Sequence record: OR845616.1
DNA from: Escherichia phage ECO95 1-6-1
Length of the DNA stretch: 1,914 bases
Reading direction: 5' to 3' (one strand)
Part shown: positions 860-1,914 of the stretch, piece by piece
How the letters are laid out: the number at the start of each line of letters is the position of its first letter
Position numbering within the stretch: position 1 is the first letter of the stretch
The notes under the pieces: generated by a model
Told to the model about the DNA's origin: nothing
Database searches by the model: none
What the model saw: only the letters and a program-made list of their open reading frames with translations
Translations under genes and position numbers: made by a program

Positions 860-1561
860 ATGGCAGACCCGTCACTTAATAAGCCTGTCGTGGTTCAGGC
901 TACACGCATTGATGCATCTATTCTCCCTCGTAACATATTCAGTCGGTCTTACCTTCTGTATGTCATAAATCAGGGTACTGATGTTGGCGCTATTGCGGGA
1001 AAGGCAAACGAAGCAGGGCAAGGCGCCTATGACGCGCAGGTAAAGAACGATGAGCAGGATGTTGAGCTTGCAGACCACGAAGAGAGAATTCAACAGTTAC
1101 GCATCGACGTAGACGACCATGAAATACGTATTACTGCAAATGCCAATGCAATTGCGGTACTGGATGTCAGACTAACCACGGCTGAAGGCAAAATAGTCAC
1201 CTTGCAGGCTGATGTCAGTGCTCTTGATGGTAGGGTTACGGCTGCTGAAAGCACTATTTCTTCATTGCAGGCTGATTACGTATCGAAGTCAGCAACTGCT
1301 TCTCAATCGCTGGCGTCACCTCTCAACGTGACAACGTCCTATTCAGTTGGCGGCACTAAAGTTATCGGTGCGCGACAGACAGGATGGACAGCAGCAACAG
1401 GCGCTGCGCTTCTCGGTGCATTCAACGCTAACCAGGCATACACGGTCAGTGCCACATATACGCAGTCTGAGGTATCAGCTATGGCTAACGGATTGCAGCA
1501 GGCGCGGCAGCGTATCAAAGCTCTCGAAGATGCAATACGAACTCATGGATTGATCAACTGA
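860..1561 (+). CDS. gp26: Tail needle protein, P22 gp26 family (trimeric cell-envelope-penetrating needle / portal-channel plug), complete, 233 aa
   Basis: ATG at 860, TGA at 1559..1561, 233 codons, the same length as P22 gp26. The N-terminus MADPSLN...[56 protein letters not shown] matches my recollection of the P22 gp26 N-terminal domain. The central part (about residues 60-145) shows hydrophobic heptad periodicity consistent with the trimeric coiled-coil core, and the C-terminus ends ...[19 protein letters not shown] Shine-Dalgarno lies 6 nt upstream of the ATG. Confidence 0.9.
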
Positions 1562-1914
1562 TGATTACATTCATTCCAACACGCAACATCGACCTGATAG
1601 AAACGGTCGGCAACCATCCCGACATCATAGCCGGGAGTAACAACGGTGACGGATACGACTACAAGCCTGAGTGCCGCTATTTCGAAGTGAACGTACATGG
1701 TCAGTTCGGTGGCATCGTGTATTACAACGAGATTCAGCCGCTGACCTTTGACTGCCACGCCATGTATCTGCCTGAGATTAGAGGATTCAGTAAGGAAATC
1801 GGGCTGACGTTCTGGCGATACATTCTCGCCAACACCACCGTTCAGTGCGTTACATCATTTGCTGCACGCAAATTTCGCCACGGTCAGATGTACTGCGCAA
1901 TGATTGGCCTTAAG
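1561..1914 (+). CDS. 3'-truncated CDS: N-terminal 118 aa of a P22 gene 14-like protein (positional homolog directly downstream of the tail needle; function poorly defined); gene continues past the window end
   Basis: ATG at 1561..1563 shares one nucleotide with the needle TGA stop (TGATG), and the frame is open for 118 codons to the window end ([76 protein letters not shown]...). It is absent from the ORF track only because it has no stop in the window. The position matches P22 gene 14. The product is assigned by synteny; I do not recall the P22 gp14 sequence well enough to confirm identity. Confidence 0.6.
   Translation, partial: MITFIPTRNIDLIETVGNHPDIIAGSNNGDGYDYKPECRYFEVNVHGQFGGIVYYNEIQPLTFDCHAMYLPEIRGFSKEIGLTFWRYILANTTVQCVTSFAARKFRHGQMYCAMIGLK

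Follow-up and report, generated by a model that had tools for sequence, protein, structure and literature searches.

A predicted GNAT fold and a single invariant histidine in the gene 14 product of P22-like phages

Introduction

What does gene 14 of phage P22 and its relatives do? Together with gene 13 of phage T7 it is one of the classic morphogenesis genes whose molecular role was never settled, and P22 mutants in gene 14 are said to produce poorly infectious particles. The question is raised anew by a stretch of 1,914 nucleotides from Escherichia phage ECO95 1-6-1 (sequence record OR845616.1), referred to below as the window, that ends within a reading frame resembling gene 14. A first-pass annotation of the window described the encoded protein, gp14, as rich in cysteine and histidine, and speculated about metal binding or a catalytic dyad. 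The analysis reported here points elsewhere. The protein very probably adopts the fold of the GNAT acyltransferases, and in its family, DUF2824, the only cysteine or histidine that is invariant among 26 diverse relatives is His66. Our confidence is high for the identity of the gene, its fold, its superfamily membership, its conservation pattern and its synteny; the function proposed below is held much more tentatively. The gene and its family are already known, and the link to acetyltransferases and the synteny were published in 2016 (PMC4819975).

Identity of the gene

The reading frame in question is the following:

1561..1914, plus strand: P22 gene 14 homologue (DUF2824), first 118 of 151 codons, predicted GNAT fold, cut by the window end (from the translation, PF11039, phrog_651 and the AlphaFold2 model)

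All 118 codons are free of stops, and the frame is P22 gene 14. The fragment matches the Pfam family PF11039 (DUF2824) at E=4.7e-44, with 150.5 bits against a gathering cut-off of 25 (full-length gp14 of phage Emek reaches 177.3 bits), and it matches phrog_651, the PHROG family 'head morphogenesis', at E=5.9e-59. The gp14 proteins of P22 and Emek are 96–98% identical to it. P0001, the 151-residue representative of its protein cluster of 4387 sequences, shares 97% identity with the fragment and differs from it at positions 15, 44 and 90 only. A tblastn search with full-length P0001 detects the gene in 128 phage records, 122 of which reach at least 90% identity. The Emek counterpart continues for 33 further residues, none of them cysteine or histidine, to a total of 151. 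The first-pass annotation was therefore correct in calling the frame gene 14-like and truncated by the window, and the translation reproduces all eight of its cysteine and histidine positions as well as the FDCHAM motif.

The start of the gene is annotated in two ways. In P22, in UAB_Phi20 and in the protein clusters it is the ATG that corresponds to window position 1561. The RefSeq coding sequence of Emek gp14 begins at an ATT 12 nucleotides upstream (window 1549, IDQL-MITF...; Emek locus L001:5549-5563), within gene 26, and this looks like an annotation error.

The first-pass annotation also regarded the product as functionally undefined, and the disagreement among database records bears this out. 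P22 records name it 'virion stability factor' or 'unknown protein', and one protein of 92–98% identity carries at least ten record names, among them virion stability factor, head assembly, head morphogenesis, head decoration, capsid and scaffold protein, capsid protein, head stabilization, virion assembly, DUF2824 and hypothetical. The names decoration, capsid, scaffold and virion stability protein are guesses without support. In a literature search for phenotype data on P22 gene 14, most matches to 'gp14' concern T7 gp14 or the Sf6 tailspike. A search for defence systems with PADLOC gave zero matches for gp14, for the second type of gp14 described below, for the distant family member P0112 and for T7 gp13. 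A match to the NCBIfam 'C45 proenzyme' model (11.9 bits, far under the cut-off of 85) was discarded as noise.

Several database proteins fuse DUF2824 to parts of gp7, gp16 or gp10, each on one or two short contigs. PF11039 is joined to PF25688 in P0002, P0020 and P0053, to PF26808 in P0038 and P0046, and to PF11134 in P0065 and P0076. These look like frameshifted or misassembled gene calls, not real fusions.

Conservation of the cysteines and histidines

Within the window gp14 has cysteines at positions 38, 65, 96 and 112 and histidines at 19, 46, 66 and 107, and Cys65 and His66 are adjacent in FDCHAM. Each residue makes up 3.4% of the fragment. Typical enterobacterial frequencies are about 1.1% for cysteine and about 2.3% for histidine, and the gp10 fragment encoded in the same window has 2.1% cysteine. 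Against these enterobacterial frequencies, the probability of at least four cysteines in 118 residues is 0.042, that of at least four histidines 0.29, and that of at least eight of the two together 0.049. The cysteine content is barely above chance and the histidine content is not above chance; the composition is real, but the enrichment is marginal.

Conservation was assessed at two depths. The close clade consists of 24 P22-type sequences at 58% identity or more, and in it His66, Cys96 and Cys112 are invariant while Cys65, His19 and His107 are at least 90% conserved. This carries little meaning, because the clade is 75–97% identical overall and its members are too similar. The deeper alignment, A2, holds 26 full-length diverse relatives with 17–41% identity to the P22 type. 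The eight residues fare as follows:

Cys38, codon 1672..1674, plus strand: start of beta2; kept in 17/24 close relatives and in 2/26 of A2
Cys65, codon 1753-1755, plus strand: kept in 5/26 of A2; Ile or Val in 17/26
Cys96, plus strand: in beta5; kept in 7/26 of A2
Cys112, plus strand: in alpha4; kept in 9/26 of A2, Ala in 10/26
His19: kept in 9/26 of A2
His46: kept in 2/26 of A2
His66, codon 1756-1758, plus strand: kept in 26/26 of A2
His107, plus strand: in alpha4; kept in 10/26 of A2

His66 is the sole invariant cysteine or histidine in A2, where Gly51, Gly116 and Gly121 are at least 90% conserved. Other conserved columns are D/E64 (20/26), R74 (20/26), G75 (17/26), T139 (20/26) and R/K140 (21/26). 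Around His66, in the predicted strand beta4, the columns alternate: position 63 is hydrophobic, 64 acidic, 65 hydrophobic and 66 histidine. This would place Cys65 on the buried face of the strand, and D/E64 and His66 together on its polar face.

A metal site (for example for zinc) or a thiol-imidazole dyad of Cys65 and His66 has in its favour the presence of four cysteines and four histidines within 118 residues, the adjacency of Cys65 and His66, and the conservation at 90% or more of Cys65, Cys96, Cys112, His19, His66 and His107 in the close clade. The idea is nevertheless largely refuted, and we regard it as very improbable. The 26 relatives share no set of three or four conserved ligands, and a second type of gp14, about 20% identical and found in the same genomic slot in Kapi1, phiSG1, APSE and Proteus phages, is without all four cysteines. 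No cysteine is conserved, and the replacement of Cys65 by Ile or Val is typical of a buried strand position. A dyad or a shared metal is unlikely because adjacent residues on beta4 should face opposite sides of the sheet. The predicted GNAT fold has no known structural metal site, and the residues are scattered over beta2, beta4, beta5 and alpha4. Both lines of evidence by which the first-pass annotation proposed to check its speculation, conservation across homologues and a Foldseek search with a predicted model, go against it: the cysteines and most of the histidines are not kept, with His66 as the exception, and the structure search finds a GNAT fold, not a metal or thiol-imidazole site. 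The cysteines of gp14 are incidental. A disulfide role for them was also considered and rejected, the protein being cytoplasmic and the cysteines not conserved.

Predicted fold and relationship to acetyltransferases

An AlphaFold2 model was built on P0001 with an alignment of 24 homologues. It has a mean predicted local distance difference test score (pLDDT) of 91.9 and a predicted template modelling score (pTM) of 0.86. As assigned by DSSP, its elements run beta1-alpha1-alpha2-beta2-beta3-beta4-alpha3-beta5-alpha4-beta6-beta7, which is the order of the GNAT fold, and a C-terminal helix follows. Foldseek gives 405 matches in the PDB at E<=1e-3. Nearly without exception, the best 50 of the 405 are acyltransferases of the GNAT type; they include SpeG spermidine acetyltransferases, PseH and RimL-like proteins, with E values down to 5.9e-9 and a probability of 1.00. 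Among the best 30 the query-based template modelling score (TMq) is 0.73–0.81. A search of BFVD, a set of predicted viral structures, ranks phage RimL/GNAT proteins, a DUF2824 protein and an 'internal virion protein A' highest.

The same kinship is visible to sequence profiles. When the A2 profile is compared with PDB sequences, SpeG of S. aureus is matched at E=2e-13 (53.6 bits), 3fbu at 4.6e-10 and SpeG of B. thuringiensis at 3e-9; weaker matches are PseH (3.6e-6), RimJ (7e-5) and MccE (5e-4). The distant member P0112 exceeds the threshold of the Pfam family Acetyltransf_4 (26.6 vs 24.3 bits). The window sequence alone matched no GNAT model in Pfam. A profile of close homologues (A1) gave PDB matches only to the designed repeat proteins 'Cake' and 'Scone'. 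These were set aside as a repeat artefact, since each score added up many repeats of one 4.9-bit hit on residues 3-37.

Judged by sequence profile and predicted structure, DUF2824 is a divergent GNAT family, and within the superfamily gp14 is nearest to the SpeG / RimJ-RimL branch. The family is small: an exhaustive hidden Markov model (HMM) search of 1.84 billion cluster representatives finds 55 relatives at E<=1e-3.

Candidate active site

Three segments of gp14 bear on a possible GNAT-type site for acetyl-CoA (AcCoA):

1744..1767, plus strand: predicted beta4, TFDCHAMY, codons 62-69, from DSSP; D64 at 1750-1752, C65 at 1753-1755, H66 at 1756-1758
1771..1797, plus strand: PEIRGFSKE, codons 71-79, beta4-alpha3 junction, corresponding to GNAT motif A (the pyrophosphate-binding loop) in the alignment of the family profile with SpeG ('pefrgk.yakea' vs 'PEFSGKgYAKFA')
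1846..1902, plus strand: predicted beta5 (C96-A102) and alpha4 (R106-M114), codons 96-114, from DSSP and the HMM alignment; holds C96, H107 and C112

In the HMM alignment to SpeG, D/E64 takes the place of the Glu in the SpeG 'E-(I/F)-Q', and His66 that of its Gln, which is Gly in 3fbu. The 'P-E-x-R-G' of gp14 aligns with 'P-E-x-(S/Q)-G', where motif A starts; the canonical form of this motif is Q/R-x-x-G-x-G/A. Phe105 falls on the alpha4 Asn position and Cys112 on that of the catalytic Tyr, which we take to be the general acid of SpeG. On the aligned sequences, the AcCoA-binding core of gp14 appears recognisable but degenerate.

Several GNATs carry a general base on beta4 (Glu173 in Gcn5, His120/His122 in AANAT, Glu92 in hSSAT), and for this reason His66, on the predicted polar face of beta4, could be a reasonable catalytic or ligand-binding candidate in an acyltransferase. 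In GNAT enzymes this strand borders the active-site cleft. A GNAT-type site around D/E64-x-His66 is possible. That a polar histidine and the motif A Arg-Gly persist across 17–41% identity is easier to reconcile with ligand binding or catalysis than with a role in structure alone.

Genomic neighbourhood

In all retrieved contexts the DUF2824 gene lies directly upstream of genes for ejection proteins, and every member whose context was examined is inside a structural gene module of a podophage. In Emek, which is 99% identical, gp14 is followed by genes 7, 20 and 16. The P22-type and related contigs (including those of P0085 and P0090) have the order gp10, needle, DUF2824, gp7 (PF25688), gp20 (PF16928) and gp16, and the second type of gp14 fills the same slot between needle and gp7 in Kapi1, phiSG1, APSE and Proteus phages. 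In a metagenomic podophage with unrelated tail-fibre genes (L005), DUF2824 is followed by a 'DNA ejection protein' (phrog_4287), by phrog_2534, 'released from the phage upon host infection', and by a protein of 1005 amino acids. Another group of distant metagenomic podophages (L010), whose tail genes are likewise different, has a gp4-like gene, a gp10-like gene, an open reading frame (ORF) of 83 amino acids and DUF2824, then proteins of 164, 814, 520 and 755 amino acids, of which the 814-residue one has a 'DNA ejection' domain.

In distant metagenomic podophages an ORF of 83-86 amino acids without a family match directly precedes DUF2824, in the place where P22-like phages have the 233-residue needle gene. 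These short ORFs are at the following positions:

L005:5068-5328
L006:917-1168
L008:1309-1569
L010:3662-3913
L011:2889-3140

The two types of gp14 have also recombined. P0075, a protein of 153 amino acids from E. coli, is a natural chimera of them with the joint near the beta4-alpha3 junction. Over the N-terminal ~80 residues it shares 65% identity with the Kapi1/phiSG1 type and 29% with the P22 type; over the C-terminal half it shares 94.5% with the P22 type. Such a chimera points to structural compatibility between the two types. The module may also travel with satellites. The E. coli phage-inducible chromosomal island EcCIMP1, which is mobilised by the P22-like phage Kapi1, reportedly encodes DUF2824-like and DNA-transfer-like proteins (PMC11773190), which suggests that it bears its own copies of the helper module of gp14 and ejection proteins.

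A gene of this kind in this position has been described before. Hardies et al. 2016 (Virology, PMC4819975) report that the T7 internal virion protein A (IVP-A) matches acetyltransferases, that morphogenesis needs it but the virion does not keep it (citing Kemp et al. 2005), and that related phages have a gene of the acetyltransferase family in the IVP-A slot; the P22 and T7 genes are equated in that paper. The cobavirus paper (PMC6775973) draws the same parallel for a GNAT gene beside IVP genes in SIO1-like phages. gp14 belongs to this IVP-A positional class: a small GNAT-like gene directly upstream of the DNA-ejection protein genes of short-tailed phages.

Proposed function and alternatives

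Our proposal is that gp14 works as an N-acyltransferase, dependent on acyl-CoA, with a phage protein as its substrate, a mechanism that, taken as a whole, we put somewhat short of an even chance. gp14 would be a small cytoplasmic GNAT protein acting late in infection, where it would N-acylate a phage protein using acyl-CoA. The likeliest target would be gp7, gp20 or gp16, the ejection proteins whose genes follow directly and are probably translated from the same coupled message, and acylation would be needed for the target's correct incorporation or function in the virion. On one face of beta4, His66 and the acidic residue at position 64 would form a general base or substrate-positioning pair, and the four cysteines and other histidines would have no specific role. 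That gp14 binds acyl-CoA and is catalytic, which substrate it acts on and what His66 does are all things that we infer. The corresponding general claim, that gp14 and its DUF2824 relatives are active transferases modifying an ejection or other virion protein through a D/E-x-His centre on beta4, is a possibility that we view with some doubt.

Several observations weigh against an active enzyme. Motif A keeps R74 in 20/26 and G75 in 17/26 members of A2, and its second Gly is absent throughout DUF2824 (Ser77 here, 'RGKxA' in distant members). The loop is about 1-2 residues shorter than that of SpeG, and shortest in the P22 type. The position of the SpeG Tyr is occupied by Cys112 (Ala in 10/26 and Cys in 9/26 of A2), and that of the alpha4 Asn by Phe105. 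The placement of His66 towards the cleft is predicted from strand periodicity only. The literature searched gave no biochemical data on acetyl-CoA binding by gp14 and no report of acylated P22 ejection proteins. T7 gp13 and epsilon15 gp13 are without the beta4 histidine, so the role of the IVP-A class may not depend on His66 or on catalysis. The lost Tyr lowers the chance of activity in gp14; it does not exclude it, because catalytic residues vary widely among GNATs. The degenerate, shortened motif A and the lost Tyr and Asn positions favour the main rival to our proposal, in which gp14 would be an inert GNAT fold that acts as a chaperone or scaffold, binding gp7, gp20 or gp16 through the former substrate cleft, keeping them soluble or delivering them into procapsids, and then being mostly released. 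This is a serious possibility, although we would not call it probable. T7 gp13, the equivalent in position and fold, is a 'probable scaffold protein' in its Pfam entry; as said above, it is needed for morphogenesis but not kept in the virion, and it has neither a conserved motif A nor the beta4 histidine, its invariant residues being different ones. From record names such as 'head assembly' and 'virion stability factor' one would expect an assembly phenotype. In phage L, CsCl-purified virion preparations yielded gp14 peptides, and 14 is among the listed known P22 virion components (PMC8022706), which is compatible with physical association; the authors of that paper, however, warn that the preparations were contaminated by precursor particles. 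An invariant histidine with a conserved acidic partner, together with the retained Arg-Gly of the CoA loop, would be unexpected in a purely structural binder, and the similarity of the family to active enzymes is unusually strong (the SpeG match at E=2e-13).

If gp14 were an enzyme, its substrate could also be a small molecule. A SpeG-like N-acetyltransferase of, for example, spermidine or putrescine might tune the counter-ions packaged with the DNA; SpeG is consistently the best match by structure and by sequence profile, and such an activity would explain the P22 record name 'virion stability factor'. We consider this quite improbable. The prominence of SpeG is partly a counting effect of its many PDB entries, as RimJ, PseH, MccE and generic GNATs match too, and most profile matches span only the AcCoA core (41-151), not the N-terminal region that determines acceptor specificity. 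The strict linkage to ejection genes in very different phages speaks for a protein partner and not a metabolite, and the poor conservation of motif A and the loss of the catalytic Tyr count against a polyamine enzyme.

Layout of the window

The window is part of the late operon of a P22-like podophage (genus Lederbergvirus). It shares 99.5% identity with Salmonella phage S.Kent 1-2-1 and 99.0% with Emek, and 123 phage records match it. Upstream of gene 14 it contains:

2..856, plus strand: gene 10 homologue (tail hub / head closure protein), C-terminal 285 codons, entering at the 5' end of the window (open frame, Emek annotation)
860..1561, plus strand: gene 26 homologue, tail needle, 233 amino acids, the upstream neighbour of gene 14 (ORF list; 'tail needle protein' in Emek, P22 and others)
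1559..1563, plus strand: TGATG, in which the gene 26 stop (1559-1561) overlaps the gene 14 start (1561-1563) (sequence, ORF list)

The TGA stop of gene 26 and the ATG at 1561-1563 have one A in common, and the annotation of P22/UAB_Phi20 carries the identical overlap of one nucleotide (gp26 at 17570-18271, gp14 at 18271-18726). This arrangement suggests translational coupling of the two genes. Two ORFs on the minus strand, 1543-1758 and 1734-1838, were rejected as spurious: both are small and lack support from any family, and the strand opposite them carries a strongly conserved coding frame. An Rfam scan of the window gave zero matches, and scans of the window for promoters and terminators gave counts no higher than chance. 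A terminator-like hairpin on the minus strand at 1606-1623, inside the gp14 coding region, is probably due to chance (1 found vs a mean of 1.7 in shuffled sequence).

Significance

For gp14 the focus moves from the cysteines to His66, D/E64 and R74-G75. As an annotation we suggest 'GNAT-fold (DUF2824) ejection-protein assembly factor, IVP-A class', which is more accurate than the names now in use. If gp14 is indeed a transferase with a D/E-x-His centre, short-tailed phages would have a dedicated enzyme for modifying virion proteins, conserved beside their ejection genes. This would explain the long-unexplained need for P22 gene 14 and, by analogy, possibly that for T7 gene 13.

Comparison with known systems

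The nearest known system is P22 itself. The window carries the same gene in the same slot, behind the tail-needle gene 26, whose stop it overlaps in an identical TGATG, and the sole difference of note is that the window is without the last 33 codons.

T7 gp13 (PF11090) and epsilon15 gp13 resemble gp14 in size (138-154 amino acids) and position, lying immediately upstream of three to four ejection or internal-core genes and downstream of tail-tube or needle genes; the T7 order 13-14-15-16 after the tail genes 11-12 is the arrangement of DUF2824 and the ejection genes. The AlphaFold model of T7 gp13 (pLDDT 93.3) has the same GNAT topology, and its best 50 PDB matches are all of the GNAT family (RimI at E=3.7e-5), with a TMq of 0.5–0.64 that is weaker than for gp14. 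The record of epsilon15 gp13 notes an HHpred match to the GNAT 3fbu, and its similarity to T7 gp13 (P=1e-3) exceeds that to DUF2824 (P=8e-3). Membership of DUF2824 in the T7 gp13 / epsilon15 gp13 family at the level of sequence was considered and rejected, as profile tests were non-significant and only fold and position are shared: hhalign gives a probability of 1.0% for A2 against the T7 gp13 family alignment (A3) and of 5% for A2 against epsilon15 gp13, and the window protein has no match to PF11090 at E<=1. T7 gp13 is unlike gp14 in having no beta4 histidine and in its own invariant residues (W61, N99, N105 and H108). Right after its predicted beta4, T7 gp13 (L002:3308-3724) reads R70-L-S-G73-K-A75, which is the canonical motif A pattern; these positions are not conserved in A3, and the fit may be coincidental.

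With the SpeG, RimJ-RimL and PseH enzymes (Acetyltransf_3/4-like) gp14 has in common the predicted fold and topology and a size of about 150-170 amino acids. GNAT enzymes and gp14 share 'P-E-x-R/Q-G' after beta4, 'G(F/L)-x-x-x-G' after alpha4 and a C-terminal 'G-x3-D-x3-Y', whereas on beta4 the DUF2824 signature D/E-x-His replaces the E-x-Gln of SpeG and the E-x-Gly of 3fbu.

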